From an uncultured Dehalococcoidia bacterium (GTDB taxonomy: Bacteria; Chloroflexota; Dehalococcoidia; Bin125), in the NCBI GenBank assembly GCA_964347635.1, contig CAYFZI010000002.1:8851-72850 (forward strand): a stretch of DNA of 64,000 nucleotides, read 5' to 3'. The translations under genes were made by a program, and so were the position numbers. Positions 7,179 to 42,870 of this stretch are shown piece after piece. The notes below the pieces were generated by a model. That model searched no databases, was not told the DNA's origin, and saw nothing but the letters and a program-made list of their open reading frames with translations. Position 1 is the stretch's first letter; every line of letters starts with the position of its first letter.

Positions 7179-7231
7179 GGCCGCCGCGGCGGGCTACGAT
7201 GTGATCGATCCAGTCCTGCAGGGAGCGGTAC

Positions 7232-11185: not shown

Positions 11186-11253
11186 CCTGATGCCCGGTCC
11201 GCGCGGCCGACCGCCCGAACCTGCACGGCGGCCTGAACACTTGGAGGAAGCGC

Positions 11254-20588: not shown

Positions 20589-22007
20589 GTGCGTGCGATT
20601 GGCTATCTCAGCCGGTGCGAAGCACAGACCGGCGAGAGAGCGCCCGCACTGGCTGAACAGAACGCGGCATTTCTCGATTTCTGTAACGAGCACGGCTATG
20701 AACCGGCGGCGACATTTCTCGATGCTTCCAGCGAGGCGCAGCGGCCCGGCTTCGCGCAGCTGCTCCAGCACCTCTCTGAGCAGCCGGCGGGCTTCACCGT
20801 GGTCGTAGTGCCCGCCTTTTGCCGGCTCGGAGGCGACGCCAATCAGAGCGCGCGCGCGCTGCTGCAGATGCGCGTGCGCGGGGCGCAGGTGCTCTCGCTG
20901 GCTGAGGGCCCGCTCGATGAATCGGCCATGATCGAGCTTTGGGAGCGCCAGCAGCCGCGCGAGCGGGGCCGCCGGGTGCGCGACGCGATGCGCCGCCGCG
21001 CGGTCCGCGGGCAGGCTCTGGGCCGCCCGCCCTACGGTTACTGCGTCGGCCCCGAGGGCCGCTTTGAGGCGGTCGCCGAGGAGGCCGACGTGGTCAAATA
21101 CATCGTGCGGATGTATCTTGACGAGGGCCTCGGGATCCGCCGCATTGCCCAGCGGCTCAACGCCGAGGGCTACCGCACCCGCCGCAAGGGGAACTGGAGC
21201 ATGGTCACGATCCGTGATCTGCTGCGCAACCGCGTCTACATGGGCACCTACCAGCGCTTCGGCGTCAGCGTGCCCAACAACCATGAGGCGTTGATCACGC
21301 GGACAGAGTTCAACGCAGTGCAGGAGCGGATGGCCGCGCGGCGCACGGCGCCGGGCGCCTCGCAGGGCGGGCGCTTTCTGCTTTCCGGCCTGCTCTGGTG
21401 CGGGGAAAGCGGCAGCCGCATGGTCGGCGTGACGCGCCGCCAGCGCTGGCAGCGTCGCGGCGGCGAGACCTCCAGCGGCGTCTACCGCTATTACCAGAGC
21501 GGGGCGCGCACCAACCAGTCGGTCGGCGGTTACCACACGCGCCGCGCCGATGAGCTCGAACAGGAGGTGTTGGCGCATCTGCGCGGCGAGCACAGCCGCG
21601 AGCCGCTCCCGGCCCTGGCGCTGGCCGGGGACGCCAACGCGGTCGTCGCCGAGGCGACCGCCGCCCTCTCGCGGGCGAAATCGCGGCTGCGCGCGCTCGA
21701 TCGCCGCCTCGGCCAGGCGCTCGACGCCGTCAGCGTCGGCGGCGGCTCGATGCAGGGCTTGCGGGACACAGCGGCGGTGGTCGTTGAGGAGTATGAGCGC
21801 GCCGAAGCGGATGTCGAGCGGCTGCACGGCCGCCTCGCGGCGCACACCTCCGACGCTCAACGCCGGCGCCGCCGCGATCAGCTGCTCGCCCAGGTGCGGG
21901 AGGGCTGGGACGCGCTCAGCTTTGAGGCGCAGCGCGCGCTGCTCGCCGACCTGGTCGAGCGGGTGATCGTCCACGACCACGGCGTCCAGACCATCCTGCG
22001 CGCCTGA
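20589..22007 (+). CDS. Large serine recombinase family protein (resolvase-like N-terminus, Recombinase domain, coiled-coil C-terminus); catalytic motif atypical
   Basis: RPGFAQLL, VVVPAFCRLGGD (DRLxR-like) and the Recombinase domain (PPYGY...VVKYIVRMYLDEGLGIRRIAQRLNAEGYRTRRKGNWSMVTIRDLLRNRVYMG) are present. The N-terminus reads GYLSRCEAQ instead of the canonical Y-x-R-V-S-T-x-E-Q. GTG start is 3 nt after the DUF164 stop. Confidence 0.7.
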   Translation: MRAIGYLSRCEAQTGERAPALAEQNAAFLDFCNEHGYEPAATFLDASSEAQRPGFAQLLQHLSEQPAGFTVVVVPAFCRLGGDANQSARALLQMRVRGAQVLSLAEGPLDESAMIELWERQQPRERGRRVRDAMRRRAVRGQALGRPPYGYCVGPEGRFEAVAEEADVVKYIVRMYLDEGLGIRRIAQRLNAEGYRTRRKGNWSMVTIRDLLRNRVYMGTYQRFGVSVPNNHEALITRTEFNAVQERMAARRTAPGASQGGRFLLSGLLWCGESGSRMVGVTRRQRWQRRGGETSSGVYRYYQSGARTNQSVGGYHTRRADELEQEVLAHLRGEHSREPLPALALAGDANAVVAEATAALSRAKSRLRALDRRLGQALDAVSVGGGSMQGLRDTAAVVVEEYERAEADVERLHGRLAAHTSDAQRRRRRDQLLAQVREGWDALSFEAQRALLADLVERVIVHDHGVQTILRA

Positions 22008-22015
22008 GCTGCATC

Positions 22016-22444
22016 GTGCGTGTGATCGCCTGGGCCGACGGAGCTTCGCGCGGCAATCCCGGCCCGGCCGCCTACGGATACGTGCTGACCGATGAAGCCG
22101 GCGTAGAGCTGGAGAGCGGGGGCGCCGCGATCGGCCGCGCGACCAACAACGTCGCCGAATACCGCGGCGCGATCGCGGCGCTGCAGGCAGCGGCGCGCTG
22201 CGGCGCTGCAGCGGTCGAGCTGCGCCTCGACAGCGAGCTCGTTGTGCGCCAGGTCGAGGGCCGTTACCGCGTCCGCCACCCGTCGCTCAAGCCGCTCTAC
22301 CAGCGTATGCGCGACCTGATCGCAGAGTGCCCCGAGTTCAGCGTCCGCCACGTGCCCCGCGCGCAAAACAGCCGCGCCGACGCGGAGGCCAACGCCGCCC
22401 TCGATGCACCCCCGCTGAGCAGCGGCTGCGCCCGGGTCTGTTGA
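22016..22444 (+). CDS. rnhA: Ribonuclease HI
   Basis: IAWADGASRGNPGPAAYGYVL...AEYRGAIAAL...RADAEANAAL carries the RNase H catalytic DEDD pattern. GTG is 8 nt after the recombinase stop. Confidence 0.85.
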   Translation: MRVIAWADGASRGNPGPAAYGYVLTDEAGVELESGGAAIGRATNNVAEYRGAIAALQAAARCGAAAVELRLDSELVVRQVEGRYRVRHPSLKPLYQRMRDLIAECPEFSVRHVPRAQNSRADAEANAALDAPPLSSGCARVC

Positions 22445-22560: not shown

Positions 22561-22952
22561 GGCGGCCAGGCCGCCGGGCGGCCGCGCGCTGATCGCAAGA
22601 TCGGCTCGAGGAAAGTCCGGGCTCCTCGGGACAGGGCGCTGGGTAACTCCCAGGCAGGGCGACCTGACGGAAAGCGCCACAGAAACATACCGCCGCGTGC
22701 GCTGCGGCGCCGCGCGGTAAGGGTGAAATGGTGCGGTAAGAGCGCACCAGCGGCCGGGCGACCGGCCGGCTGGGCAAGCCCCGCCCGGAGCAAGACCAAA
22801 TAGCGAGATCGCGGTGCAGCCCGCTGCGCCGCAGGCGCGTCCCGCGCCGTCTCCGGGTAGGTCGCACGAAGCGGCGGGCAACCGCCGCTCTAGATGGATG
22901 GCCGCCGCCGCAGCGCGGTTACAGAACCCGGCTTACAGGCGGCCTGGCATTC
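22561..22952 (+). ncRNA. rnpB: RNase P RNA (bacterial type A)
   Basis: Universally conserved blocks are present: GGAAAGTCCGGGCTCC, ACAGGGCAGGGTAACTCC-like, GGAAAGTGCCACAGAAA-like, GTAAGGGTGAAATGGTGCGGTAAGAGCGCACCAG, CAAGACCAAATAG, ACAGAACCCGGCTTAC. P1 pairs gccaggccgcc (22565-75) with ggcggcctggc (22938-48). Confidence 0.85.
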
Positions 22953-23047
22953 GAACCGCATTCGGCCGCGGCGGCGGCCCTACAGTGCAGGACAGTGCAG
23001 GAAATCAGACGAGAAACGGGGCAAGGGAACTGGGCAGGAATGCATTG

Positions 23048-24589
23048 ATGGCCGCCAAACTGCTCGCCGACCTGCTGCGCCGTACCGCTCACCGACACGC
23101 CGCCGGCCCGCGGCCCGAGTCGCTCAGCGTGTCCGGCGTCGGCCAAGACTCGCGCACCGTCGGCGCCGGCGGCTGCTTCACGGCGATCCCCGGCTTCAGC
23201 GTCGACGGCCATCAGTATCTGGCCTCCGCGATCGCCGCCGGTGCAGCTGCGGTTGTTGTCCAGGCCGATCGCCGCGCTGTCTGGGAGCCGCTGCTCGAGC
23301 ACGCTGCTGAGGTTGCAGTGATCGAGGTCGAGGACAGCCGCACCGCGCTGGCCGACCTGAGCGCGGCCTGGCACGATTTCCCGGCGCGCAAACTCACTGT
23401 CGTCGGCGTCACCGGCACCGACGGCAAAACCACCACCGCCCACCTCTCCCACGCGCTGCTGAGCGCCGCCGGCCACCGCACGGGGTTGATCAGCGGGGTT
23501 GAATTCAACGTCGGCGGCGAGTGGTCGACGAACGAGAGCGGCGAGACCACGCCCGAAGCCGACGTGATCCAGGCGCGGCTCGCCGAAATGGCTGCGGCGG
23601 GGCAGACGCACGCGGTGATCGAGGCCAGCTCGCACGGCCTCGAGCTGCAGCGCGTGCGCGGCTGCGAGTTTGATCTGGCTGTCTTCACCGGGCTCTCCGA
23701 CGATCATCTCGATTTCCACGGCACGCGCGAGCGTTACCTCGAGGCCAAGCTGCGCCTGTTCCGCGCGCTCGACGACGCGCAGCCGGTCGCCCGGCCGCGC
23801 CCGCGCTTCGCCGTGGTGCGTGCTGAGGATCCGCTGCGCGGCACGATCGCCGCCGCGCATCGGCAGCCTACGATCAGCGCCGCCAGCACGGCGGGCGGTG
23901 GCGGCGATGTATCCGTCCAGCCGCTTTCGCAGGATGCGGCCGGGGCGGAGCTGCGCGTCGTCACTCCGGCCGGCGCGCTCGCTGCACGGCTGCCGCTGCC
24001 GGGCGATTACAACCTCGGCAATGCAGCGCTGGCCGTTGGTGCGGCCTGGGCGCTGGGAGCGGGCCCCGCCGCGCTGCAGCGCGGCTTCGCCGAGGCCCGC
24101 CCGGTGCCCGGCCGGATGCAGAGCATCGACGCGGGTCAGCCGTTCGGCGTGATCGTCGATGCGGCCGCCACCGGCCCCGCGCTGCGCGCCGCTCTCGATG
24201 CCCTACGCCCCCACGTTGGCGGCCGCTTGCTGCTCGTCTTCGGCGCTGCCGGCGATCGCGATCCGGCGCGGCGCACGGCGATGGGGGCAGCGGCGGCCGC
24301 ACTCGCCGACCTTAGCTTCATCACCAGCGAGAATCCCCGCTCGGAGGATCCCGCTGCGATCGTCGCGGAGATTGCCGCCGCGATGCGCGGCGCCGGCGCG
24401 GGAGATCGCTTCGTTGAGCAGCCCGACCGCCGCGCGGCGATTCGGCTCGCCTTCGCCGAGGCGCGGCCCGACGACCTCGTGCTCATTGCCGGCAAGGGCG
24501 CCGAGCGGAGCCTGATCTTCGCCGACCGCAGCGAGCCCTGGGACGACCGCGCCGCCGCCCGCGAGGAACTGCAGCGTCTGCTCGGCTGA
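23048..24589 (+). CDS. murE: UDP-N-acetylmuramoyl-L-alanyl-D-glutamate--2,6-diaminopimelate ligase (MurE)
   Basis: GVTGTDGKTTT P-loop and the ENPRSEDP (DNPR) MurE motif. The start is ATG 23048, downstream of rnpB; the longer track ORF runs through rnpB. Confidence 0.9.
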   Translation: MAAKLLADLLRRTAHRHAAGPRPESLSVSGVGQDSRTVGAGGCFTAIPGFSVDGHQYLASAIAAGAAAVVVQADRRAVWEPLLEHAAEVAVIEVEDSRTALADLSAAWHDFPARKLTVVGVTGTDGKTTTAHLSHALLSAAGHRTGLISGVEFNVGGEWSTNESGETTPEADVIQARLAEMAAAGQTHAVIEASSHGLELQRVRGCEFDLAVFTGLSDDHLDFHGTRERYLEAKLRLFRALDDAQPVARPRPRFAVVRAEDPLRGTIAAAHRQPTISAASTAGGGGDVSVQPLSQDAAGAELRVVTPAGALAARLPLPGDYNLGNAALAVGAAWALGAGPAALQRGFAEARPVPGRMQSIDAGQPFGVIVDAAATGPALRAALDALRPHVGGRLLLVFGAAGDRDPARRTAMGAAAAALADLSFITSENPRSEDPAAIVAEIAAAMRGAGAGDRFVEQPDRRAAIRLAFAEARPDDLVLIAGKGAERSLIFADRSEPWDDRAAAREELQRLLG

Positions 24590-26195: not shown

Positions 26196-26239
26196 TCCGG
26201 CGGCATGGACGCCCGCCGGCATTGAGAGATCGAAGGCCG

Positions 26240-27049
26240 ATGGCCGACGTCGACCCGTTGCCGCCCGCCAAGCGTCTCCAGACTGCGCAGGTCAGCGAGG
26301 CTCTGCGGACCCGCGCCGTGGGGCGCGATCTGCACTATCTGCGCGTCACCGACTCCACGATGGCGGATGCCCGCCGCCTCGCAGAGGAGGGCTGTCCGCA
26401 CGGTGCGGTCGTCGCCGCCGACGAGCAGACTGCCGGCCGCGGCACCAAAGGCCGCTCGTGGGTCTCGCCGGCGGGCCAGAGCATCCACACGACGCTGGTC
26501 GTGCGGCCCGACGCAGAACAGATGAAGCGCCTCAGCATCGTCACGCCTGCGGCAGCGGCGCGCGCTGTCGAAGAGGCGGCGGGCATCGTTCCCGCGATCA
26601 AGTGGCCGAACGATCTAGAGATCGGCCGGCGCAAGTTCGGCGGCATCCTGATCGAGGGTGAATGGCGCGCCTCCGGCCCCGCCTATGCCCTGATCGGCAT
26701 CGGCATCAACGTGAACTTCGACCCCGCGCCGCACGCCGCCCAGATCGACCGTCCGGCGACCAGCCTGATGATCGAGCTAGGCCGCAAGCTCTCCCGCGAA
26801 GCCGTCCTGGCCGCGCTGCTCAACGCCTTTGAGGCGGCCTATGATCGCGCCGACTCCGACGAGGTCTTCGAGGCCTGGCGCTCGCGCCTCGACACGCTCG
26901 GCCGCTCAGTCCAGATCATTGCCGGCGGCGTTGTCCAAGTTGAGGGCGTCGCCGAGGACGTCACCCGCAGCGGCGCGCTCCAAGTCCGTGATGCCGGCGG
27001 CGCCGTCCACACCATCGTCGCCGGCGAAGTCTCGGTGCGCGACGCCTAA
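26240..27049 (+). CDS. birA: Biotin--[acetyl-CoA-carboxylase] ligase (BirA, catalytic plus C-terminal domains, no N-terminal HTH)
   Basis: ADEQTAGRGTKGRSW (GRGRxGR biotin-binding loop), KWPNDL and GILIE motifs. ATG 26240 follows GAAGG. Its stop overlaps the convergent stop of the giant gene. Confidence 0.8.
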   Translation: MADVDPLPPAKRLQTAQVSEALRTRAVGRDLHYLRVTDSTMADARRLAEEGCPHGAVVAADEQTAGRGTKGRSWVSPAGQSIHTTLVVRPDAEQMKRLSIVTPAAAARAVEEAAGIVPAIKWPNDLEIGRRKFGGILIEGEWRASGPAYALIGIGINVNFDPAPHAAQIDRPATSLMIELGRKLSREAVLAALLNAFEAAYDRADSDEVFEAWRSRLDTLGRSVQIIAGGVVQVEGVAEDVTRSGALQVRDAGGAVHTIVAGEVSVRDA

Positions 27050-30000
27050 CCTGTCTCATCCAACGTCATCTCCCCCAGCGCCATCGGCAGCTCGACCTTG
27101 AGTGGCGGCGCCCCCATACCGCGAACGATCAGCACGCGCTCCGCGTGCTGCAGTTCGTACGGGCCGCCCCATGAATCGCGGGCGGCGACATAACGCCACC
27201 GCTTCACGCTTGCTGTGGGCACGCCGATTCCCATCACCGAGGGATCGATCGACAGCGCCAGCTCGCGGGCCGGCAGGCCGCTCTCGCCTTGAAACACGAT
27301 CGGCGTGACCCCGCGGCGGAGCGTGAGGCCGTAGGTCGGCATCTCGGCGATCGCGATCATGCTGGGCGCGCGGACCCGCAGCGCGATTCCACCGTCGATC
27401 TGCTCGACCTCCACCTGCCGCCAGGTTGCGCTGGCGAGGTCGAACACGATGAACGCCAGCGGTGCGCTCTGCGGCGCCAACGGCAGGCGCACGCTGAGAT
27501 CGGCCGATCCATCGAGCGGTGTGCCGCGCTCGTCGGTGAGCGCGATTCGCCAGGCGCTGAGGATTGATGCCTGCTCCCCATCCGGATCCCATGTCAGCGC
27601 TGCAATGTCGTCGAAGATTTCATCGAGCAGCACGCGGCGTGTGAGCGGCCGCACCTCGATCTGCACCGCGGCGGCGCCCGCCGGCGGGGCGGCGGCGTGC
27701 AGCGTGAAGGCTGGGAGGCCGTCGTCGTGCTGCGCTGCAAACCCCTCGTGCGCATCCCCCCGGCCCGTCTGGACCGTCGCGTAGACGCCGCCGCGCCAGG
27801 CGAACTCATGCACCAGCTCGCGCCGCAGCGCGATTGCCATGGGTTGGGTGGTGTCGCCGCGGGCGCGGATATGCGCGGCCGCAATGCGGCCCTCGGGGGT
27901 GGGCGCGACGAGCATTTCGTTTGCGGCCGGCAGCGTGAATCCTGCAAGGCGCCGACCAGTTGCGTCGTGCACGCCGTTGGGCAGGCGCGGTTCATAGCTC
28001 AATGTGACCGCGTCGCGCGCCGTGACTGGGGTTTGCAGCGTCAGCGTTGCGCGCGTCTCACGCCACTCCACGCCGATCACGCGGATCGTGCGCCGCCCTG
28101 CTGTCACTGTGAACCATTCGGGCTCCGCGCCGCCGGCCGCCACGGCTTCGCTGAACTGCACTTCGAGTATGGTCTCGGCCGCGCTCGCCGCTACGGCGAC
28201 GGGGCCGAGCTGAGTGTAGTTGGGGGCCAAGACGGAGGCGGCGTCGACGCGGTGGCCGGCCGCGCCGCGCAACGCTCCGGTCTCGCGGTGGCGGGCGAGG
28301 TAGGCAACGATCACGTCGCTGCTTTCGGGCAGCCCCGGCTCTTCGAGCAGCAGGGTCACGCTGCCCGCGCGCGAGACGAATACCGCTTCGACAGCGGCGC
28401 TCGATTCGGCGGCGGCGATCCACCACGAGCGCGGCGGTACGTGATCGGGATCGAGCGGGCGATCGAAATGGATCAGTACGACTCGGCCGACGGCGACAGC
28501 GCGCTCCATGATCGGAGCGCGGCCGCGGTCTGTTAGGGCGATCGTGAACGCTGCTGTCGAGTTCCCGTGACGGTCGAGGATGGGGCGGGAGCTGTTTGGG
28601 GAATAGGTCAGACGGATTCTGCTGTCGGGCCCGGCGCCTGGTTCGTGCAGCCGCAGGCGCAGCTCAGTGCCGCTGATGCCCAACACTTCGAGTACCGCAG
28701 GCGCGCGGCTGAGCGTAAAGTCGGCGGCCGCCGGCAGGCGGCTCGGGTCCAGCGGTTCATCGAACGTTATTACTAGCTCCGTAAGCCAAGACTCCGCGCT
28801 GACCGCCTGCGGCGGCCGCGCCGTTGTGTTTTCTGCTGCAACCGCGAAGGCTTCGACAACATTGCCGGTTGGGTCCGCGAGCCCGCCTGCGTCCTTTGGC
28901 GCATACTCCACGCGAACTGCAGAGCCCTCAAGCAGGCTGCGTACGAGCGTCAGCACCAACTCTGCACCCGATATCTGGGCGCCGATCACTGCGGCGCGGC
29001 CCTGTCTGTCGCTAACCGTGAAGTGCTCAAAATCTGCTGCGCCGGACAATTCCTGGTCGAATCTCAGTGTGATAGTGCTTCGATCGGCCGCGGCCGCCGT
29101 GATCTGCGGCGCGGTATCGGTCGTGTTCTGTACATCGATCTCGAATGCGCGCACGGGCCGTCCTGCGGCGTCGAGCAGCGCAGCTTCTTCGGGCGGTTCA
29201 TATGCAGCACGCACAGCGGCGCCTTCAACGGCCGCCGCGGCCAACTCAAGCGCGACAGCCGCGCCCGCTGCCTCCGCTGATACCGTGTGCAACCGCTCCG
29301 CACCGGTCCAGACTGCGAACGCGTCCGCCGTCAGCGGTGCGTCGCTCAATAACGCATCGAACTCAATCTCCAGCGAGACGCCGTCAACCTGCGCTGAGAC
29401 GGGGGCGGCGGGCGTTGCATTGCTCACCTCGATCGGATCGAACGAGGCGGCCAGGTTCGCAGGCACGGATGTATCTCGAAGCGGCGAGATCGTCTGCATC
29501 TGATACTGCAGCTGTACCAGGTCGCTGACCGCAACACTCTGCAGCAGCTCAATCCGAACCGCGCGTTCCTCGACCTCTGAATCGCGGAACGGCCGCGCCG
29601 CTCCGTTCACCCACACCCGAAACGCGTTGAGCGGCTCGCCGAAGTCGTTGAGATACGGCGGCCCCGGCCCGGCCGCGAGCGGTTGGTCGAACAGCAGCGT
29701 GATGACGTCCTCCTCGACGGCTGCGCTTTTCATCACCGGCGCCGTATCGGTATGGTTCGCAACCGTAATTTCGAAACCGGCGACAGGCAGCTCTCCCTGA
29801 TCGGCGTCCAGCAGCCGGCCGGCTGCTTCGGGCGGCGCGTAGTGCAGCACGACCTGATCAAGCTCATGCGCGGTCGGCCCGCCGAGGTTCAGCGAAACCG
29901 TTGCGCCTGCGGTCGTGATTGACTCGATCTGCGCCTCGCTGCCGTCGAGCGTGAACCCTCCTGGAGCGGCCATTGCGGAAGGGCCGATCTGTACAGCCTC

Positions 30001-33000
30001 GCTCATCTGCAGGGTGAGCGAGGCTCCGGTCACGTCGATCTCGGCCGACTGCGCTGTGGGAGCGGTGTCCGTCGTATTTTGTACGTCTATCGCGAACGCA
30101 GCGGCGTCGTTGCCTGTCAGATCGCGTATACGATTGCCTGGCCCGATCGAATACGAAAGCCGAACAGCGGCGCCGTCCGCTATCGATGCTGAAAGAGCGA
30201 TGTGTACCTGGCTGCCGTCGAGCGTTACTGTCTGTGCAGCGGGGCCGTCATCGAGCGAGAATGAGGCGGCCGCGGGCACCGAGGTTGGATCGAGCTGTTG
30301 ATCGAACACGATCGTCAGCGACTGGCTGTCGACGGCAGCGCTCACGGCCCGCGGCGGAGTGTCGGTGAGGTTCGCCAGCGCAAGATCGGTGATCGATGCT
30401 GGGTTGCCCTGCTGATCGCGCAAGTACTGCAAACCGGGCTGCACGGCGATCTCCTCCGCTGTCGGCGCTGAGTAGTTGAGTGTAACCAGTTCTCCTTCCG
30501 CAACCGCCGGATCCAGTGTCAGCGCCAGCACGCCTGCGCCCGATGCTGCGTCGTTGCGAACCTGAACGCTCTGAACCGCTGCGGCCGTGCCCGACACTGT
30601 GAAGTCGGCGGCGGGCGGGACATGTTCCGTATCAAGCGGTTGATCGAATGCAACGGCCGCAGCATCTGCGTCCACGCTGCCGCTCACCGCGCTCGGCGCT
30701 GTATCCGTTCTGTTCTCGGCCGCCGCTGCGAACGCCTCGACGGCGTTGCCTTCGGGATCTCGAAGCGCGGAGTCGCTCTCTCCTGGGTCGTACTCGATCG
30801 TGATCGCTGCCCCTTCCTGCACGTTGGCGCTGAAGGACAGGGCGACCACACCAAGCCCGCTTACAGGATCATTCCGAACCGCCGCGGCTGTTACTGCGGC
30901 GGCGCTGCCCTGAAGCGCAAACGATGCTGGATCTGGGTTGGCTGCTGTGTCTAGATCCTGGTCGAACGTGATTGCGGCGTGGTTCAGATTCACTTCCACC
31001 GCTGCGACCACCGGTATGGTGTCGGTCACATTTTCGATCATGAATCCGGGAATTGCCTCAACCGGCGCGCCGTTGACGCCCTGGAGGCGCGGCAGCTCAG
31101 CGGTCGGCGGGTCATAGAACAGCATGAGCGGAGCGCCTTCTCGCACCGGGGCTGCGAGACTCAGCGTCACCTCGCGCTCGTTCACTGCCGCACCTGAAAC
31201 TGTTGCGAAATTCACCGTGAACGCAGTGACCGGAGGTGCAGCCTGCGGTTCAAGAGCCGCATCGAAAGTGAGCACAATGGTGCTGAGATCTGCGCTGGCC
31301 GAAAGCAGCGACGGCGGGGTGCGGTTCTCTGCGTCGATCGGACCGAACGACGCTGTCGGCAAATCGGACAAGTCGCGCAGCCCGCCGCTCTTCGGCGCCG
31401 TATACGAGACCGCCGCATCGTCGGCAGCGGTCGCTGCTCGTTGGAGATTCAGGGCGACCAGTTCAGAATCAACCGCAGCCGCCGTTACGGTCACGACTTT
31501 GTTGGCAATCGAAACAGTGAACATGTTTCCGGTCAGCGGCGAGGCGGAGTCAAGCGGTTGATCGAATGTGATCGTTAGCACTTCGCCGTCAACCACGGCG
31601 CGGATCGGCAGCGCTGCGTAATCGACTGGATTGTCCGCGTTGATCGAGAACGCTGCAACCGGCAGCCGACCCTGGTCGGCGTCGCGCAAGGCGTTCGCCG
31701 CACCGGCAGTGTACGCGAGCGTGACGGCCTCGCCTTCCTGCGCCGAGGGTGCCAGCGACAGGGTGATCGTCTGGCCGCTAACAACAACGCTGCTAACTAG
31801 CGCATCCGTGCCGCCAAGCGTGAATTGGGCGGGCGGCGGCATGTCGGCAGGTTCTTCGCTCAGCGCTTCGCTGAAGGAAAGCTGGAGTGATGCTCCGTCG
31901 GCAGCGATGCCGGCGCTGACCGCGGACGGCGCGCTGTCAGTCTGGTTCACCAGCTCTTGGGTGAAAGAGGTGACTGCGTTGCCGCTGGTGTCTCTTAACC
32001 CGCCGCTGTCCGGCGCCGAATACTGCACACTGATCAAAACGCCGTCGGCGGCAGCCGGCATCAGTGCGAGCGTCACGGTTTGCCCCTCGACCGCCACGCT
32101 CTCGATACTCCTGCCTGTAACGGCAAAGTGCGCCGTGTCGGGCACCGCGGCCGCATCAAGCTGCTCATCGAACGTCAGCGTTAGTGCTGCCCCGTCTACA
32201 ACCGCCTGGGCCAACATGGGCGGGGTATCGGTCTGATTGTCTACGTCGGCGCTGAACGCTGCGGCCATGTTGCCGGTGGCGTCCTGCAGGGGCTCCTCGC
32301 TCGGCGGGGTGTACGCCAGTGTGACCGCTGCGCCTTCGAGTACTGCCTGTGCGAGCGTTAGCACCAATGCGCTGCTTGCAATCTGTATGCTCTCAATTGC
32401 GATCGCGTCCGGGCCGATGGTGAATGCCGTACCCGCCGGCACCTGCGCGGCGTCCAACGGCTGGTCAAACGTGACTTGCAGCTGTTTGAGGTTGACTGTT
32501 GCGGCGGTTACTACTGGTGCTGTATCAGTCTGATTGTCAACCATTCGGCCGCTGACCGCTCCGAATCGAACGCTGTTGCTGCCTGCGATGCCGCGCTCTT
32601 CATCCTCTGAAGGTTCGTAACTGATCTGGACAACCGCGGCTTCCACCGCGGCTGTATCCAGCGTGAGTTGAACCGTACGGCCGCTCACAAGTACAGTCGC
32701 CACAGCCGCGTTGGTGACGGTGAAATCGAGGGGCTCTGGCGTCACTGCTTCGTTCAGAGCCGTGTCAAACTCGAGCGTCAGTGCGGCGCCTTTCACGCTC
32801 GCGGCCGACAGCAGAGGCGGGCTGTTGTTTTCGACCGCCTGCTCGGAAATTGGCGCAACCACCGCACCTGCAGGTGTGCTCAGCGGCTTTGCTGTCGGCA
32901 GTCGATAGGAAATGGTCACCGCCTGATCACCTGGGATCGATGAAGCCAATTGCAATACAAGTACACCGTTTGCAACGGCGACGCTGTTTACAGCGGCTGT

Positions 33001-36000
33001 TGCGTCGCCGACGGCGATCGTGAACACATCCGATGCCGGCACGGAGTCTGCCGCTAGCGCTGCGTCGAACGTGATACGGAGCTCAGCGCCGTTGACGGCT
33101 GCTGACTGGAGCGACGGTCCTTGCTGCGCCCGATTGAGTACGCCGGTCGTGAAGCTCGGCGCTGCATTGCCCGTTGGATCCCTGAGCGGCTTGCTGCTGT
33201 CCGGCGAGTAGGTTAGTTGGAGCGCTGGGCCGGGCAGGACGCAGCAGGTGATTGTGAGCGTGACGATGTTCTCGGCCATCGCCACACCAGTGATGCTGGG
33301 CGCCGCCGCGCCTAGGCTGAACGCCGAGGCTGGAGGCGTTGAGGCTGTATCGAGATCCTGATCGAACACCACCTGCACAGATTGCTCGGCAGCCGCCGCG
33401 CTGACGACCGTCGGCGCAGTATCGGTATTGTTCGCTGCGCTGGCTGAGAATGCGGCAATGGCGAGGCCGTATTCGTCGAGCAACGGCCCTGTTGCCGGCG
33501 GTGTGTAGACGACCGATACTTCATCGCCTTCTTCAATCGCCGGTACTGCGGTGAGCAGTACGTTCGCGTGGCTGATTGCTGCGCTGGCCGGCTCCTGGCC
33601 GTTGATGCCAAATGCGCTCGTCGCGATGCCGGGCGCGGCGAACAGCGGTCGATTGAAGAGAAGAGTGACAGTGCTGCCGTCCGCGGCTGCGGAGCTCAGC
33701 GTTGCTGCATCCGGTGTGGCATTGGCGGCAGCGAGCGAAAAGGCAGCAAGCGGGCGCCCGTTCGCATCCTGCAGCGCATTTTCCTCGGGCACAGTGTAAG
33801 CAATCTGAACCGCTGCGGTTTGACGCACCGCTTGGGCCAACCGCAGGCTGAGCGTCGACCCCTTCACGCTGACGCTGGAGAGCGTTAGCGTGGCCTCGCC
33901 GCTGGTGACAGAAAATGCCGATACGCCGGGCGGCGAGCTGGCCTGCAGCGGGCTGTTGAACGCGATCTCAAGCGTCCAGCCGACTACCTCTGCGCTCATA
34001 GCCTGCGTAGCTGTTTCGTTGCGCAGTGTCAGAGGGTCGAACGACGGTGCGAGATTCGGCGGCTGCGATGTGTCCTGCAACGGTGAGTTCGTTTGCAGCT
34101 GGTACTGCACTTGGACGACTGCGGTTGGAGCTACTGCTGTAAGCAGCGTAATGATGATGCTGCGTCCATCGACCTCAATGGTTTGAAAGCCGACGCGGAG
34201 TTCGGCGACAGTGACTCGAAACGCGCTGAGCGAGCTGAGGCCTTGATCGAGCACCGGCGGTACAGCCGATGAGTCAAGCACCTGATCGAACGTCAGGGTA
34301 ATCGTGCTGCCGTCCACGGCACCGTCGACAACCGCGGGGGCGGTGTCTGTCTGGTTCTCTATCTGCAGCGCAGAGAAGGCCGGAACCACCGTTCCATTCG
34401 CGCCGCGCAGCGGTTCGGCGCCGGCTAGGACAGGCGAGTAAGAGACGCTGAGTGATACACCTTCCGAGGCTGGCGGCGTGATGGTCAAGACGACGGTTCG
34501 TTTCTGCACCGCGGCCTCAGCGGCGCTGCGGCCGTTGATCTGAAAAGCCGCTGCAGCCGGCGCAGAAGTCGTATCGAGGTCTGCGTCGAAGCTGATCGTC
34601 AGGGTGCTTCCATCGACTACTGCGGCGCTGGCGGCAGGCGCTGCGAGATTGTCGGCGCTGAGCGGACCGAATGACTCGACCGCGTTGCCTGTAGCGTCCA
34701 CCAGTAGCTTGTCCGTGTCTGGGCGGGTGTAGGAGACAGTCACAGCGGCATCGGCGCCAACGGCGTCCGCGAGGGTGAGCTCCGCCAGCTCAGCGGATAG
34801 CGCGACCGAGTCGATCGCGATCGTCTGGCCGTCGGCCGATACCGAGAAACTTGAGGGTAGGGGCTCCGAGCCGGCGTCCAGCTCTTGGTCGAATGTGATC
34901 GATACTTGGCGGCCGGTGACGGCCGCCGACAAGGGTTGAGGTGCGGTGTCAGTGATGTTGCTTGCCGTCGTCGTAAAGCCTGCTACAGCTGCGCCGTTGG
35001 CCCCCTGTAGTTTGGTCGTTTCGCCGGGTCTGTATTGAACGGCGACCGCGGCTCCTTCTGTGACCGGCTGCGCGGGCGTGAGCGTAACTTCAGCACCGCT
35101 GATCGTGAGCCCGACTGCCTGCTCATCATTGACGAGGAATGCGCTGGCAGGCGGTGCAGCAACGGAGTCCAGCGTGCTATCGAAGGTCAGCGTGACTGTC
35201 GAGCCGTTAGCAACACCGGACAGCAGGATCGGGGCTGCCGCCGCGGGCACCTGGAACGGATGGGCAGCGATCATCCCGACCAAAGGTCGAGAACCGCTTC
35301 GCCCGCGCAGCCGAGTTCCGCTGTAACGCAGCCACACCGTCTCGCTGCCTGGCAGCGCCGCGACCGGGAATGAGAGGGTTACGACCTGGCCGTCGATGCT
35401 CACATCCGCCGCTGCGGTGCAGTCTGAGTCGTCTGAATCCTCGGCCGGGCAGACTGTGAAATTATCGGCCGGCGGCTGGCGGCTTTCATCGAGTTCGACG
35501 CGGAAGGTGAGTTGAACGTCGGCGCCTTCGACAGCGAGTTCTGCAACGACCAGTTTGCTGTTGTTGTTGTTGAGCGACGATCGGCTGAATGCGGCGACGC
35601 GGGCGGACGGCTTCGTTTTGGTTTCGAGGCCGTTCGCGGCCGGCGGTGTATAGGCCAGGCCGGGGTCGTAGGAATGCCTCCAGGGCGGCATCGGCGGGAG
35701 GACGTGGAGCACGACCTGTCTTCCGTTGATCGTGATCTTGCGTACGGTGGTGCTGAAACCGGTGATATCGAACGCAGAGCCGTCCGGCACTACATTGGCA
35801 TCCAGCTCCAAGTCGAAGTCCAGCGTGATCGTGTACGCGTCGACCAATATTCCACTGACTTCAGGCGGCGGGCCGGGGGTCGTGATCGGTGTGAGCATGC
35901 CGTAGGCGGTGAAGGTGCGGGAACCGTCGCGCGATTGGATCGGGTCACCGCAGCCTGTACCGCTGCTGCAGTACTCGATAGTCGCTTCATCGCCCTGTGA

Positions 36001-36279
36001 TACGAATACCCCGAGCGTGAGCAGTATGCTGCTGCCCGCCACCTCGACTGCGTTCACTCTTCGCATGCGCGAGGAGCCGCCGGTGAAGACCTGGAAGGCG
36101 GAAGTCGGTGGTGTGGAGCTGGGATTCAGCTCCTCGCTGAACGTAAGTGTTGCGGTGTCTTCGACTATCGTTCCGCGCACAAAGGAGAGTGAATCGGACT
36201 GTGCAAGGAGCGCGCGGCCGGCGAGCAGCGCGAAGATCAGCAAGGCCAGCGCAACACCGAGCCGCTGCAGCGTTTGCAT
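27046..36279 (-). CDS. Giant secreted protein (3077 aa) made of 25 or more tandem, roughly 95-aa bacterial Ig-like repeats plus a distinct C-terminal region of about 600 aa
   Basis: N-terminal signal peptide MQTLQRLGVALALLIFALLAGRALLAQ. A recurring unit TLTFDxxLDxxSxPxxSAFxVxxxGxxxxVxSVxVxGxxVTLTLxxxVxxGxxVxVSYxxPxxxxLxDxxGNxxxxFxxxxxNxT is repeated along the chain. It is a single uninterrupted 9.2-kb ORF. Confidence 0.85.
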   Translation of the reverse strand: MQTLQRLGVALALLIFALLAGRALLAQSDSLSFVRGTIVEDTATLTFSEELNPSSTPPTSAFQVFTGGSSRMRRVNAVEVAGSSILLTLGVFVSQGDEATIEYCSSGTGCGDPIQSRDGSRTFTAYGMLTPITTPGPPPEVSGILVDAYTITLDFDLELDANVVPDGSAFDITGFSTTVRKITINGRQVVLHVLPPMPPWRHSYDPGLAYTPPAANGLETKTKPSARVAAFSRSSLNNNNSKLVVAELAVEGADVQLTFRVELDESRQPPADNFTVCPAEDSDDSDCTAAADVSIDGQVVTLSFPVAALPGSETVWLRYSGTRLRGRSGSRPLVGMIAAHPFQVPAAAAPILLSGVANGSTVTLTFDSTLDSVAAPPASAFLVNDEQAVGLTISGAEVTLTPAQPVTEGAAVAVQYRPGETTKLQGANGAAVAGFTTTASNITDTAPQPLSAAVTGRQVSITFDQELDAGSEPLPSSFSVSADGQTIAIDSVALSAELAELTLADAVGADAAVTVSYTRPDTDKLLVDATGNAVESFGPLSADNLAAPAASAAVVDGSTLTISFDADLDTTSAPAAAAFQINGRSAAEAAVQKRTVVLTITPPASEGVSLSVSYSPVLAGAEPLRGANGTVVPAFSALQIENQTDTAPAVVDGAVDGSTITLTFDQVLDSSAVPPVLDQGLSSLSAFRVTVAELRVGFQTIEVDGRSIIITLLTAVAPTAVVQVQYQLQTNSPLQDTSQPPNLAPSFDPLTLRNETATQAMSAEVVGWTLEIAFNSPLQASSPPGVSAFSVTSGEATLTLSSVSVKGSTLSLRLAQAVRQTAAVQIAYTVPEENALQDANGRPLAAFSLAAANATPDAATLSSAAADGSTVTLLFNRPLFAAPGIATSAFGINGQEPASAAISHANVLLTAVPAIEEGDEVSVVYTPPATGPLLDEYGLAIAAFSASAANNTDTAPTVVSAAAAEQSVQVVFDQDLDTASTPPASAFSLGAAAPSITGVAMAENIVTLTITCCVLPGPALQLTYSPDSSKPLRDPTGNAAPSFTTGVLNRAQQGPSLQSAAVNGAELRITFDAALAADSVPASDVFTIAVGDATAAVNSVAVANGVLVLQLASSIPGDQAVTISYRLPTAKPLSTPAGAVVAPISEQAVENNSPPLLSAASVKGAALTLEFDTALNEAVTPEPLDFTVTNAAVATVLVSGRTVQLTLDTAAVEAAVVQISYEPSEDEERGIAGSNSVRFGAVSGRMVDNQTDTAPVVTAATVNLKQLQVTFDQPLDAAQVPAGTAFTIGPDAIAIESIQIASSALVLTLAQAVLEGAAVTLAYTPPSEEPLQDATGNMAAAFSADVDNQTDTPPMLAQAVVDGAALTLTFDEQLDAAAVPDTAHFAVTGRSIESVAVEGQTVTLALMPAAADGVLISVQYSAPDSGGLRDTSGNAVTSFTQELVNQTDSAPSAVSAGIAADGASLQLSFSEALSEEPADMPPPAQFTLGGTDALVSSVVVSGQTITLSLAPSAQEGEAVTLAYTAGAANALRDADQGRLPVAAFSINADNPVDYAALPIRAVVDGEVLTITFDQPLDSASPLTGNMFTVSIANKVVTVTAAAVDSELVALNLQRAATAADDAAVSYTAPKSGGLRDLSDLPTASFGPIDAENRTPPSLLSASADLSTIVLTFDAALEPQAAPPVTAFTVNFATVSGAAVNEREVTLSLAAPVREGAPLMLFYDPPTAELPRLQGVNGAPVEAIPGFMIENVTDTIPVVAAVEVNLNHAAITFDQDLDTAANPDPASFALQGSAAAVTAAAVRNDPVSGLGVVALSFSANVQEGAAITIEYDPGESDSALRDPEGNAVEAFAAAAENRTDTAPSAVSGSVDADAAAVAFDQPLDTEHVPPAADFTVSGTAAAVQSVQVRNDAASGAGVLALTLDPAVAEGELVTLNYSAPTAEEIAVQPGLQYLRDQQGNPASITDLALANLTDTPPRAVSAAVDSQSLTIVFDQQLDPTSVPAAASFSLDDGPAAQTVTLDGSQVHIALSASIADGAAVRLSYSIGPGNRIRDLTGNDAAAFAIDVQNTTDTAPTAQSAEIDVTGASLTLQMSEAVQIGPSAMAAPGGFTLDGSEAQIESITTAGATVSLNLGGPTAHELDQVVLHYAPPEAAGRLLDADQGELPVAGFEITVANHTDTAPVMKSAAVEEDVITLLFDQPLAAGPGPPYLNDFGEPLNAFRVWVNGAARPFRDSEVEERAVRIELLQSVAVSDLVQLQYQMQTISPLRDTSVPANLAASFDPIEVSNATPAAPVSAQVDGVSLEIEFDALLSDAPLTADAFAVWTGAERLHTVSAEAAGAAVALELAAAAVEGAAVRAAYEPPEEAALLDAAGRPVRAFEIDVQNTTDTAPQITAAAADRSTITLRFDQELSGAADFEHFTVSDRQGRAAVIGAQISGAELVLTLVRSLLEGSAVRVEYAPKDAGGLADPTGNVVEAFAVAAENTTARPPQAVSAESWLTELVITFDEPLDPSRLPAAADFTLSRAPAVLEVLGISGTELRLRLHEPGAGPDSRIRLTYSPNSSRPILDRHGNSTAAFTIALTDRGRAPIMERAVAVGRVVLIHFDRPLDPDHVPPRSWWIAAAESSAAVEAVFVSRAGSVTLLLEEPGLPESSDVIVAYLARHRETGALRGAAGHRVDAASVLAPNYTQLGPVAVAASAAETILEVQFSEAVAAGGAEPEWFTVTAGRRTIRVIGVEWRETRATLTLQTPVTARDAVTLSYEPRLPNGVHDATGRRLAGFTLPAANEMLVAPTPEGRIAAAHIRARGDTTQPMAIALRRELVHEFAWRGGVYATVQTGRGDAHEGFAAQHDDGLPAFTLHAAAPPAGAAAVQIEVRPLTRRVLLDEIFDDIAALTWDPDGEQASILSAWRIALTDERGTPLDGSADLSVRLPLAPQSAPLAFIVFDLASATWRQVEVEQIDGGIALRVRAPSMIAIAEMPTYGLTLRRGVTPIVFQGESGLPARELALSIDPSVMGIGVPTASVKRWRYVAARDSWGGPYELQHAERVLIVRGMGAPPLKVELPMALGEMTLDETG

Positions 36280-36338: not shown

Positions 36339-37124
36339 CTATAGATCCGCGATTTCGCTGCGCAGCTCGCGGTCGTCGACGATGTGGCCGGTGTAGCTGG
36401 GCGGCTGGCTGGCGATCCAGGCGGTCGCCCGCGCCATCCAGGTTGCCTCCTCAAACTCGGTCTGCGGATTGTCCGGTGTGGTCAGCGCGTACCAGTGGCC
36501 GGGTGTTTTGATCAGGTAGCGTAGCGTCAAGACGTTACAGGCGATCTGGTACTGCTGCAGTTCCATCGCCATGCCTTGCGTGATCCGCTCGAGGCCGGCT
36601 TTGACCATCCCGTAGAACTGGCCGCCTTCACGCGGGTCGTCGTACGGCCCTGGCCCGGGCGGATCGGCCGCACCGGAAGAGATGTTGATGATGTCGCCGC
36701 CGTGCTCCTTCATGTGCGGGAGCGCTGCCTTGCAGAGCAGCACCGGCCCGCGCAGGTCGAGCTGCCAGATCAGGTCGATATGGCGCTCCTGCACCGATTC
36801 GAGGCTGCCGGGCACCAACACGGCGGCGTTGTTGATCAGGATGTCGATACCGCCAAGTTCCGCGACCGTACGTTCTACTGCGTGAGTGATCGACTCGGGG
36901 TTGCGCACGTCGAGCGGGACGGGCGCCGCGGTGCCGCCGGCGCTGCGGATTTCCTCCGCGACGGTGCGGATCGTGCCCGGCAAGCGGGGGTCGGGGGATG
37001 CTTCGTCCGATCGCGCGGCGACGGCCACCGCCGCCCCGTGCGCCGCCAGCCCGCGCGCGATGTCCGCGCCAATTCCGCGGCTCGCGCCCGTCACCAGCGC
37101 CTTGCGTCCATCGAGCAGTGCCAT
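36339..37124 (-). CDS. SDR family oxidoreductase
   Basis: ALVTGASRGIGADIA Rossmann motif, NNAAV motif and Y/K catalytic pair region. Confidence 0.8.
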   Translation of the reverse strand: MALLDGRKALVTGASRGIGADIARGLAAHGAAVAVAARSDEASPDPRLPGTIRTVAEEIRSAGGTAAPVPLDVRNPESITHAVERTVAELGGIDILINNAAVLVPGSLESVQERHIDLIWQLDLRGPVLLCKAALPHMKEHGGDIINISSGAADPPGPGPYDDPREGGQFYGMVKAGLERITQGMAMELQQYQIACNVLTLRYLIKTPGHWYALTTPDNPQTEFEEATWMARATAWIASQPPSYTGHIVDDRELRSEIADL

Positions 37125-40809: not shown

Positions 40810-40932
40810 CGGCGCAGGTTAGGGCCGCCGCCGATCAGCGCGCAATCACGTGCGGCGCGCCATAGGCCGACGGCGCTCTAACCTGTGCGGCAACCGCAAC
40901 ACAGGCAAACTACACAGGCAGGGAGGTCGAAG

Positions 40933-42117: not shown

Positions 42118-42210
42118 CGCCGCCGCTCCAGCCTGCACTCCCGTGCAGCTGAACACCGACTGGCCCCCGACCATAGAGTTGTTGAGTCGAATTGTTGAAA
42201 GGCGCCCAGC

Positions 42211-42624
42211 ATGGCCAACCGACCACAGCCCAGCTTCCCCGAGCCGGACACGCAGCACTTCTGGGACGGCTGCAAAGCGGGCGAACTGCGCTACCAGCGC
42301 GACGCCCAGGACAACGTCGTCTTCTACCCCCGCGCACACTCCACCGTCAACGGCGAGAGCGGGCTCAGTTGGCACGTCTCCGCCGGCCGCGGCACGATCT
42401 ACACCTACTCGGTGGTGCGCCAGAACCGGATGCCGGGCTTTCAGGAGCTCGGCGCCTACGCGGTGGCCTACGTCGACCTCGATGAGGGCTTTCGGATGCT
42501 CAGCACGATCGTCGGCGTCGCCGACCCGACCACCGACATCCAGATCGGTCAGCGCGTGCAAGTCGAGTTCGAGGAGCAGGCGGGCGACGACTCCTACCCG
42601 ATCCCCGTCTTCCGCCCGATCTAA
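42211..42624 (+). CDS. DUF35 (rubredoxin-like zinc-ribbon plus OB-fold) protein, thiolase partner
   Basis: Typical DUF35 length (137 aa) and architecture, located immediately after an SCP2-type thiolase. Confidence 0.7.
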   Translation: MANRPQPSFPEPDTQHFWDGCKAGELRYQRDAQDNVVFYPRAHSTVNGESGLSWHVSAGRGTIYTYSVVRQNRMPGFQELGAYAVAYVDLDEGFRMLSTIVGVADPTTDIQIGQRVQVEFEEQAGDDSYPIPVFRPI

Positions 42625-42870
42625 CCCCGTTCGGCGGCGGCGGCGGTTCTCCCCCGCGCGCGGGCGCCCGCCCCGCCCACTCGTGCAGATGCACAGCCTG
42701 AACACTTGTGCTATGTTGGCCGCGAATATGGCCGACCGCACGAACCGATCCCCAGCAGCGCTGACCGCCCCGCGGATCTGCCCGGCCGCCGTCGCTGCGT
42801 ACCCGCTTCGAGTGTCGCTGGGGAGACATGCGCGCCGCCGCCGCCCGCAGGCGCCGTTAGGATTGCGCCG

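Follow-up and report, generated by a model that had tools for sequence, protein, structure and literature searches.

The 3077-codon gene at positions 27046-36279 of the window (the whole 64-kb stretch of DNA analysed here) encodes a strongly acidic protein built from 27 tandem Ig-like repeats and a single non-repetitive C-terminal module. It is conserved at the same housekeeping locus among relatives and lacks the usual anchors of bacterial surface proteins. The giant protein is probably exported by the Sec pathway and displayed as a non-enzymatic, acidic fibre on the surface of a monoderm Dehalococcoidia bacterium, where it would act as a coat, a spacer or a fibre for adhesion. Most likely it belongs to an ordinary class of giant surface proteins of bacteria, with some unusual details of its own.

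An intact gene encoding 27 tandem Ig-like repeats

The features of the locus are as follows.

27046..36279, minus strand: giant gene, complete including its TAG stop (3077 aa)
36202..36279, minus strand: signal-peptide-like N-terminus, aa 1-26 (heuristic assignment)
27985..36201, minus strand: array of 27 tandem SWM_repeat/Big_5 domains, aa 27-2765, predicted Ig-like beta-sandwiches (HMM and model)
27337..27903, minus strand: C-terminal module, subdomain A, aa about 2793-2981
27049..27336, minus strand: C-terminal module, subdomain B, aa about 2982-3077
26222..27049, plus strand: birA (biotin protein ligase), convergent neighbour, with BPL_LplA_LipB and BPL_C matches
36339..37124, minus strand: short-chain dehydrogenase gene, upstream, on the same strand as the giant gene

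An earlier note on this DNA had described a single 9.2-kb ORF whose stop codon overlaps that of birA. Both points hold: the frame is open over all 3077 codons, from ATG to TAG, an identical 3077-aa protein is present on an independent ENA contig, and the sequence CTAA at 27046-27049 combines the birA TAA (27047-27049, plus strand) with the giant-gene TAG (27046-27048, minus strand). The overlap is real here but is not a fixed feature, as the two genes lie about 35 nt apart in relative L002 and overlap by 32-50 nt in other relatives, and birA is not a neighbour of the giant gene in L003, L005 and L007. The most constant neighbour among relatives is the short-chain dehydrogenase gene, located 59 nt from the giant-gene ATG in the window. 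A Mur ligase gene also adjoins the locus; the surroundings are housekeeping genes, with no neighbours found that indicate a function, and a scan for promoters and terminators near both ends of the giant gene gave nothing above shuffle expectation. A 1010-aa ORF at 40846-43878 (minus strand) was considered as a second surface protein but dismissed as a shadow ORF, genuine genes lying on the opposite strand. The giant protein itself is unannotated, as had been anticipated, and carries no name in any source examined.

A self-built HMM identified 27 tandem repeats between residues ~26 and 2765, each with an E-value of 1e-17 to 1e-30 and with a period of 97-114 aa. These repeats belong to the known family SWM_repeat/Big_5/TIGR02059, with scores far above the curated cut-offs: Pfam SWM_repeat (PF13753) matched 24 stretches with 626.1 bits (E=6e-193; cut-off 27 bits) and TIGR02059 (swm_rep_I) matched 18 stretches with 358.6 bits (cut-off 40.1 bits), while Big_5 matched with E=1.6e-32. 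The earlier claim of at least 25 tandem Ig-like repeats is thus borne out, and the motif then proposed is matched by the consensus of our two-repeat profile, A2. All of the repeats are diverged, with a mean protein identity of 35% and a maximum of 56% between repeats. Long identical DNA repeats are absent, again as stated before: the longest direct-repeat family in the gene is 38 nt with 60-82% identity, and TRF reported nothing relevant. Collapse of the array during assembly is also unlikely, since each of the 27 repeats has its one-to-one counterpart in orthologues from other genomes.

Two parts of the earlier description needed revision. The non-repetitive C-terminal module, put at ~600 aa, is really ~310 aa long (residues 2766-3077), and the ~300 aa preceding it are the diverged repeats 25-27. 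The assignment of the repeats as Ig-like and Big-type stood, but membership of the SbsA_Ig, cadherin or SLH families was not borne out by Pfam.

An AlphaFold2 model of repeats 13-14 (pLDDT 96.3, pTM 0.82) is all-beta and predicts that the repeat unit is an Ig-like beta-sandwich. When this repeat pair was compared with the PDB using Foldseek, the best match was the FMG1B coat glycoprotein (PDB 9gos; E=1.8e-6, 19% identity over the aligned part), followed by the S-layer proteins SbsC and SbsB (PDB 2ra1, 4uj6 and 4aq1; E=2.5e-4 to 5e-3); the Bap C-region was matched as well. The S-layer architecture suggested previously therefore stands as a likeness of fold to SbsC and SbsB, which does not amount to membership of that group.

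Conservation and selection at the locus

All seven genome matches to the giant gene were complete Dehalococcoidia MAG chromosomes, and the frame is intact in every one of them, as it is in P0008, P0015 and P0018. Intact orthologues occupy the same housekeeping locus in at least ten relatives, where the gene is core and single-copy and the number of repeats ranges between 23 and at least 33. The correspondence of repeats is one-to-one, 27 out of 27, with L004, L005 and L007. In a comparison with a copy of 95% identity, dN/dS came to 0.16-0.22 and dN to 4-7 times that of the neighbouring genes; the giant gene is under purifying selection yet evolves faster than its neighbours. A literature search for giant or surface proteins of Dehalococcoidia and SAR202 found nothing specific. 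A sponge-associated habitat, hinted at by the naming style of the MAGs, had no support in the results and is not claimed.

The GC3 of the giant gene is 0.73, compared with 0.81-0.91 in most genes of the window. Recent horizontal transfer was considered as the cause of this dip and rejected, the gene being syntenic in all relatives. The low GC3 argues against very high expression.

Putative export, C-terminal module and candidate roles

The N-terminus reads MQTLQR / LGVALALLIFALLA / GRALLA|QS, in which an n-region containing Arg6 precedes a hydrophobic core of 14 residues, with a putative cleavage site at L-L-A|Q. It is the only strongly hydrophobic stretch of the protein, and orthologues keep the same layout. 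On this heuristic reading Sec-type export is plausible, in agreement with the signal peptide proposed before. The mature protein would be about 313 kDa, with a pI of 4.2 and a net charge of -203; it is Cys-poor, and Lys makes up just 0.6% of its residues.

No SLH or other cell-wall-binding Pfam family was detected at E<=1 in the whole protein, or at E<=10 in the C-terminal module. The LPXTG sorting signal is absent, the lone LP.[TSA]G being internal at residue 2164, and the C-terminus, ...LPMALGEMTLDETG, is not hydrophobic and so offers no sortase-type tail. Neither a lipobox, a GG.G.D motif nor a HemolysinCabind match was found in the protein. With none of these recognised anchors (LPXTG and tail, SLH, lipobox, RTX), we can only assume that the protein is retained on the cell.

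The C-terminal module (~310 aa, residues 2766-3077) is the sole non-repeat part of the mature protein. It is bipartite and clade-restricted, is always located after SWM arrays, and was seen in just 15 clusters of 1.84 billion, which makes it very rare. Subdomain A comprises two helices followed by a beta-sandwich and also terminates other SWM-repeat giants. Subdomain B, a small alpha/beta domain, shows the pattern L..G..P..F.G. The far orthologues P0015 and P0018 lack it; P0012 and P0019, which are distant relatives, carry two copies in tandem. Neither the module, searched at E<=10, nor its relatives in P0012 and P0019 matched a family of Pfam or NCBIfam, and profiles A1 and A3 found no relative among PDB sequences, just chance ribosomal-protein matches. 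A low-confidence AlphaFold model (pLDDT 58.7, from a 5-sequence alignment) weakly resembles ZU5/GAIN/FIIND folds in subdomain A, with the NLRP1 FIIND as its top Foldseek match. At the position of the cleavage motif, however, the giant protein reads A-P-S, and (A/G)-P-x is found throughout the SWM giants, so that self-cleavage is not expected; H-L-S or H-L-T occurs at the matching strand solely in P0012 and P0019. The model being poor, any role given to the module is a guess.

Dehalococcoidia have been described as monoderms with S-layers, and peptidoglycan as ancestral in the class (PMC10284905). In such an envelope, cleavage of the signal peptide would leave 27 distinct Ig-like domains joined by short conserved linkers, which may form a semi-rigid chain. 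At a presumed 3.5-4.5 nm per domain this chain would be roughly 100 nm long, sufficient to cross the wall and S-layer and to project past both. Outside the repeats there is only the C-terminal module, the single candidate for attaching the chain, whether to the envelope of the cell itself or to a ligand. The giant protein would then be a constitutive, vertically inherited component of the envelope in this clade.

The linkers bear on a variant of this role. Most read N-x-T-D-T-A-P, with N-x-T conserved in about 80%, and every orthologue has N-x-S/T at 15-26 of its 18-31 linkers, with a hypervariable middle residue and a strong preference for Thr. The giant protein contains 26 sequons in all, compared with 13.4 +/- 3.3 in shuffled sequences, whereas the SWM proteins of Azospirillum and Paenibacillus, a tiny outgroup sample, keep D-T-x-A-P and mostly lack N-x-T. 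(The wider SWM family was sampled solely through plasmid tblastn; a protein search with the A2 profile gave two weak matches, owing to a word-index limit.) Such a pattern, together with the top structural match to an N-glycosylated Ig-like chain, is what would be seen if the protein were an FMG1B-like glycocalyx, that is, a non-adhesive protective coat with a glycan at nearly every linker that shields the cell against grazers, phages and unwanted sticking. We nevertheless regard this as unlikely. The organism has no known gene for an oligosaccharyltransferase or N-glycosyltransferase, none lies within the window, and a literature search for oligosaccharyltransferases in Chloroflexi returned nothing relevant; moreover, in the two-repeat model N-x-T sits in or beside a beta-strand, and its conservation may be purely structural.

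A bolder proposal adds the C-terminal module. Here N-x-T at the linkers would act as a genuine N-glycosylation sequon, so that the protein would correspond, in bacteria, to mucin-like coats of Ig chains of the FMG1B kind, and the module would be a degenerate prokaryotic relative of the self-cleaving ZU5/GAIN fold whose cleavage-competent H-L-S/T versions survive in other bacteria (P0012 and P0019). We hold this combination to be unlikely too. A genuine sequon would imply an undescribed N-glycosylation system in Chloroflexota, based on an oligosaccharyltransferase or else on a cytoplasmic enzyme of the HMW1C type.

That the giant protein itself forms an S-layer lattice is improbable. S-layers do occur in the class, the repeats share their fold with the Ig-like domains of SbsC and SbsB, the protein is acidic and poor in Cys and Lys, and its gene is core and single-copy. 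Typical S-layer subunits, however, are far smaller than a 313-kDa protein of 27 uniform domains. The absence of SLH or any other wall-binding family, and a GC3 below that of the neighbours, which would be unusual for a highly expressed gene of a high-GC genome, also speak against a lattice, and the spread in repeat number among relatives, 23 to at least 33, sits uneasily with a fixed one.

A part in a non-flagellar motility apparatus is suggested by the name of the repeat family, which derives from SwmB of Synechococcus WH8102. SwmB is a giant exported surface protein required for swimming (cited in PMC4949707). We give this reading very little credence, as the repeat type is all that the two have in common: SwmB has 10,791 residues, belongs to a diderm cyanobacterium and acts with SwmA, no motility or transporter genes lie near the giant gene, and the SWM-repeat proteins of Azospirillum and Paenibacillus are annotated simply as Ig-like.

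An assembly artefact or pseudogene, suggested by the splitting of the locus into several ORFs in two metagenome assemblies (L002 and L013), is largely refuted by the open frames here, on the independent contig, in the seven chromosomes and in P0008, P0015 and P0018, by the low dN/dS and by the lack of long DNA repeats able to collapse, and in L013 the essential birA is split too and the differences are mostly 1-nt indels, which points to read errors.

An acidic surface fibre remains the preferred reading. The Dehalococcoidia are an abundant class with hardly any cultured members, and little is known of their envelopes; a 313-kDa protein that is clade-wide and syntenic is a candidate for the outermost structure facing hosts, particles, grazers and phages. 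The one-to-one maintenance of 27 repeats, the linker N-x-T and the very rare C-terminal module may be of interest for the evolution of repeat proteins and for bacterial glycosylation. The general picture is unchanged, giant Ig-repeat surface proteins being common and usually of unknown function.

Comparison with known systems

SwmB is the prototype of the giants with SWM_repeat/swm_rep_I domains, which NCBI names 'SwmB domain-containing protein'. The giant protein shares with it the repeat family and the general type of a giant, acidic, repeat-dominated and presumably exported surface protein, a likeness read here at the level of the repeat family. It differs in coming from a monoderm member of the Chloroflexota, in being about 3.5 times shorter, in its strictly tandem, individually distinct repeats and its own C-terminal module, and in its lack of a motility context.

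FMG1B is an N-glycosylated coat glycoprotein of Chlamydomonas flagella (cilia), and its loss makes cilia more adhesive. Both proteins are giant chains of low-identity Ig-like repeats, and FMG1B forms a surface coat. The likeness is one of fold and architecture, at 19% identity, to a eukaryotic protein; glycosylation has been seen for FMG1B, whereas here sequons alone are read. For the C-terminal module, the top fold match of the low-confidence model is the NLRP1 FIIND, with no sequence match in Pfam or the PDB, and the H-[LF]-[ST] cleavage motif of the ZU5/GAIN/FIIND domains is replaced by A-P-S.

The Geobacillus S-layer proteins SbsC and SbsB likewise consist of Ig-like beta-sandwich domains in series and lie on the surface of a monoderm, where the giant protein is also presumed to reside. 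No sequence similarity to them was found, and the giant protein has 27 domains against their 6-7 and no SLH or wall-binding domain.

A long stalk of tandem Ig-like domains is also shared with Bap, with RTX adhesins of the MpIBP/LapA type and with Gram-positive MSCRAMMs, and the conserved D/N/T-rich linkers of the acidic giant protein are reminiscent of Ca2+-stiffened linkers. It lacks the RTX repeats, T1SS signal, LPXTG motif and separate adhesive head of such adhesins. Unlike the type-1-secreted RTX adhesins (LapA, MpIBP and BapA), it has an N-terminal signal-peptide-like segment. Its repeats are ancient and each is conserved in its own right; they are not the near-identical copies that a recent amplification would give.

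The giant gene and its repeat array

The giant gene is a single 9.2-kb open reading frame (ORF) with an ATG start on the minus strand (window 27046-36279), encoding 3077 residues as the earlier note had described. An independent contig among the ENA metagenomes (L001) codes for exactly the same protein, whose entry in the protein collection, with NCBI and ENA as sources, is nameless. The convergent plus-strand gene is biotin protein ligase (birA), with matches to BPL_LplA_LipB and BPL_C, and the proposed overlap of the two stop codons was confirmed, CTAA at 27046-27049 being read as TAA for birA and TAG for the giant gene. Readings of the gene as an artefact or pseudogene are excluded for practical purposes.

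A self-built profile detected 27 tandem units between residues 26 and 2765, with a period of 97-114 residues and E=1e-17 to 1e-30 for each. Their consensus, ..F.....N.TDTAP...SA.VDG...TL.FD..LD....P....F.V...........V.G..V.L.L.....EG..V...Y.P.....L.D..G..V.AF, agrees with the unit motif proposed in the earlier note, which had counted 25 or more repeats. Identity between units averages 35% (maximum 56%) at the protein level. The expected lack of long identical DNA repeats was also found, nothing exceeding a 38-nt family of 60-82% identity.

Searches of Pfam matched SWM_repeat (PF13753, E=6.1e-193, 24 stretches) and, overlapping it, Big_5 (E=1.6e-32), while NCBIfam placed them in TIGR02059 (358.6 bits), named 'cyanobacterial long protein repeat'. 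Neither SLH, cadherin or RTX nor any further family was matched; among the suggested Big, SbsA_Ig, cadherin-like and SLH domains it was Big that was recovered, and SLH and cadherin that were not. An AlphaFold2 model of repeats 13-14, built from an alignment of the protein's own 26 overlapping repeat pairs, comprises two beta-sandwiches (pLDDT 96.3, pTM 0.82); together with the family matches it bears out the bacterial Ig-like architecture. From the high pTM, the two modelled domains probably keep a fixed orientation to each other, which would imply a fairly stiff linker. The closest PDB structure to the repeat-pair model in Foldseek was FMG1B, a flagellar membrane glycoprotein of Chlamydomonas (E=1.8e-6), with the S-layer proteins SbsC and SbsB next and then a cyanophage tailspike and the C region of Bap; a sequence search of the PDB found no solved structure related to the repeats.

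Orthologues, locus and selection

A genome scan with the C-terminal alignment as query, taking one genome per species, returned seven loci, all from entries named 'MAG: Dehalococcoidia bacterium' (3.0-3.4 Mb chromosomes or a 1.3-Mb contig). The orthologous ORF is intact in these seven genomes.

Repeats per orthologue (L, loci in other assemblies; P0015 and P0018, far orthologues)
L004, L005 and L007: 27 each
L006: 28
L010: 30
L008: at least 33 (locus cut)
L009: at least 20 (locus cut)
P0015: 23 (2725 aa)
P0018: 24 (2828 aa)

P0015 and P0018, which are much more distant, lie in the gene order of the window: dehydrogenase, enoyl-CoA hydratase, giant gene, convergent birA, aminotransferase, Mur ligase, RNase H-like, serine recombinase, YceD and L32. 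Because the orthologues are intact and the far ones lie in the same gene order, the giant gene is old and vertically inherited at its locus. Recent transfer is therefore rejected as the cause of its local GC dip (0.63 versus about 0.70) and low GC3 (0.73, against 0.81-0.91 in most window genes). The downstream neighbour varies, being birA in the window and in L002, L006, L008 and L010-L012, and a MetE-like gene in L003, L005 and L007. The 3' ends of the giant gene and birA are about 35 nt apart in L002, share stop codons in the window and overlap by 32-50 nt in other relatives. The overlap with birA follows from how tightly the convergent genes are packed and is no conserved device.

By gene content the window is ordinary core chromosome, with genes for UvrB, RNase J, FtsK, RNase P RNA, Mur ligase, class III aminotransferase, BirA, short-chain dehydrogenases, a thiolase-like protein, prephenate dehydrogenase and EPSP synthase; no secretion or anchoring gene was found around the giant gene. 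Further features are as follows.

20589-22444, plus strand: large serine recombinase (Resolvase, Recombinase, Zn_ribbon_recom), then an RNase H-like gene
22566-22951, plus strand: RNase P RNA, bacterial class A (278.7 bits), overlapping the 5' extension of a long Mur-ligase ORF (22814-24589)
40846-43878, minus strand: 1010-aa ORF, rejected as a shadow ORF (no family; Arg/Ala/Gly/Asp-rich; opposite a thiolase-like gene at 40885-42117 and other plus-strand genes)
45457-45533, minus strand: the window's sole tRNA gene, tRNA-Arg (anticodon TCT)
52051-53271, plus strand: AAA_21/AbiEii-like ATPase gene in a GC dip (0.62), with GC3 (0.75) unlike its neighbours
53893-53988, plus strand: cobalamin riboswitch
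54084-55403, plus strand: Peripla_BP_2 substrate-binding protein gene, directly downstream of the riboswitch

Every relative examined (L001, L002, L006-L008, L010-L013) has the recombinase and RNase H-like pair beside its Mur ligase; such a constant position is unusual for a mobile-element gene. The RNase P RNA overlap places the true Mur ligase start downstream, giving about 513 residues as called in L001. The riboswitch and Peripla_BP_2 gene probably form a B12-regulated uptake system, and the ATPase gene may be of a defence type and of horizontal origin.

All 27 repeats have as best partner the same-numbered repeat in L004, L005 and L007 (27/27 in each), at 38-72% identity versus 35% among repeats within the protein, which indicates that the array predates these species, has escaped homogenisation and has kept its length. 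The middle and N-terminal parts of the array are rearranged and expanded in L006, L008 and L010, and it is repeats 25-27 and the C-terminal module that are best conserved with these loci (58-70%). With repeats 1-24 collinear with L004, L005 and L007, the giant protein thus looks mosaic, which recombination between lineages or unequal rates of change could explain. The boundary separates window 27049-28851 (minus strand) from the remainder of the gene. No positional correspondence with the repeats of P0015 and P0018 is left.

The orthologue is split into 4-6 ORFs in two metagenome assemblies, L002 (1641-10916) and L013 (ENA ERZ25070760 contig_23, 3186-12420; a second contig of the same sample). 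The L013 copy is 95.3% identical to the giant gene and is broken by a handful of indels; since these are mostly of 1 nt and the essential birA is split there too, the breaks point to errors of assembly and not to decay. Against L013, dN/dS is 0.16-0.22 in the repeats of the giant gene and 0.05-0.18 in four neighbouring genes, with dN about 0.02-0.03 versus 0.004-0.006 and dS about 0.12 versus 0.03-0.08. These values show that purifying selection acts on the giant gene, the fastest-evolving at the locus. Fast evolution under constraint is the expectation for an exposed protein.

The C-terminal module

The non-repetitive C-terminal module, put at ~600 residues in the earlier note, is about 310 residues long (2766-3077); the first 300 residues of that earlier module are diverged repeats 25-27. 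Analysed separately, as had been proposed, it comprises two subdomains, and neither a Pfam or NCBIfam family, up to E<=10, nor a PDB sequence relative was found for it. Only 15 of 1.84 billion representative proteins matched its profile at E<=1e-3 in an exhaustive search. Subdomain A, about 190 residues, also ends the SWM-repeat giants P0015, P0016, P0017, P0018 and P0020, in every case immediately behind the final repeat. Subdomain B, which spans about 95 residues with the pattern L..G..P..F.G...a..a......G.gv......W.y........L...e....v.......lP, is absent from these giants and occurs as two tandem copies in P0012 and P0019, unrelated-looking proteins with no Pfam or NCBIfam family.

The low-confidence AlphaFold model of the module weakly resembles the FIIND of NLRP1 (the top Foldseek match, non-significant) and CARD8, and the GAIN domains of the adhesion GPCRs CD97, BAI3, CELSR1, GPR126 and latrophilin. 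The strand ending subdomain A reads RHLSLVAVVELP in P0012 and DHLTLFSILRLP in P0019, both carrying H-L-S/T, which resembles the self-cleavage motif of the ZU5/GAIN/FIIND class. The same strand is RAPSMIAIAEMP in the giant protein, and in all SWM giants that position reads (A/G)-P-x. Subdomain A is read, with low confidence, as a possible relative of a ZU5/GAIN-like sandwich that does not cleave itself. The only two RGD tripeptides of the giant protein (residues 2807 and 2840; window 27810-27818 and the 27759-27761 region) both lie in the module, and the first is partly kept across orthologues as RGD, AGD or EGD; the pair is probably due to chance.

Export, linkers and putative function

The N-terminus, MQTLQR-LGVALALLIFALLA-GRALLA|QS, contains the sole strongly hydrophobic stretch of the protein and is arranged like a Sec signal peptide, as is every complete orthologue N-terminus (seven genomes). 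The signal peptide claimed earlier thus fits as a prediction from sequence layout. At about 313 kDa, the mature protein is strongly acidic (pI 4.2, net charge -203) and contains 0.6% Lys and 6 Cys. A motif scan found neither an LPXTG sorting signal nor a lipobox, an RTX motif or a hydrophobic C-terminal tail.

N-x-S/T occurs 26 times, versus 13.4 +/- 3.3 in shuffled sequences, and is present in 21 of the 26 linkers (~80%). All ten orthologues examined, including L004-L010, P0015 and P0018, carry it in about 65-90% of linkers; the middle residue is hypervariable and Thr is far above Ser. Among the few outgroup SWM proteins compared, an Azospirillum 'SwmB domain-containing protein' and a Paenibacillus ORF keep the linker D-T-x-A-P and mostly lack N-x-T. 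The pattern fits a possible N-glycosylation sequon or, equally, a lineage-specific structural motif; no glycosylation gene lies near the giant gene within the 64-kb window.

Dehalococcoidia are described as monoderms with S-layers, peptidoglycan being ancestral in the class (PMC10284905). A Mur ligase gene adjoins the giant-gene locus. The giant protein is best read as a putative constitutive surface fibre or coat protein because of its predicted Sec export, its acidity, its chain of 27 Ig-like domains, the lack of a catalytic domain or separate head, and its conservation in every relative. Once exported by the Sec pathway, the acidic, non-enzymatic chain of 27 stiffly linked Ig-like domains would, from typical domain size, reach roughly 100 nm if extended, with the C-terminal module as sole candidate for attachment. 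The earlier S-layer or adhesin reading is partly supported, the Ig-like architecture being borne out; a subunit of an S-layer lattice is less likely, given the size, the variable repeat number, the low GC3 and the lack of a wall-binding domain. A SwmB-like motility component has no support beyond the shared repeat.

The giant protein belongs to a known group, the giant SWM/Big_5 Ig-repeat surface proteins, and the details worth recording are the positional conservation of 27 distinct repeats, the clade-wide linker N-x-T and the extremely rare C-terminal module with its tentative ZU5/GAIN-like fold. The protein may promote adhesion, hold other things off the cell or protect it. Loss of FMG1B makes cilia stickier (PMC12021028), and SwmB is tied to grazing defence as well as motility (PMC4949707). 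In these coat and defence roles, FMG1B and SwmB are analogues for a protective reading of the giant protein.
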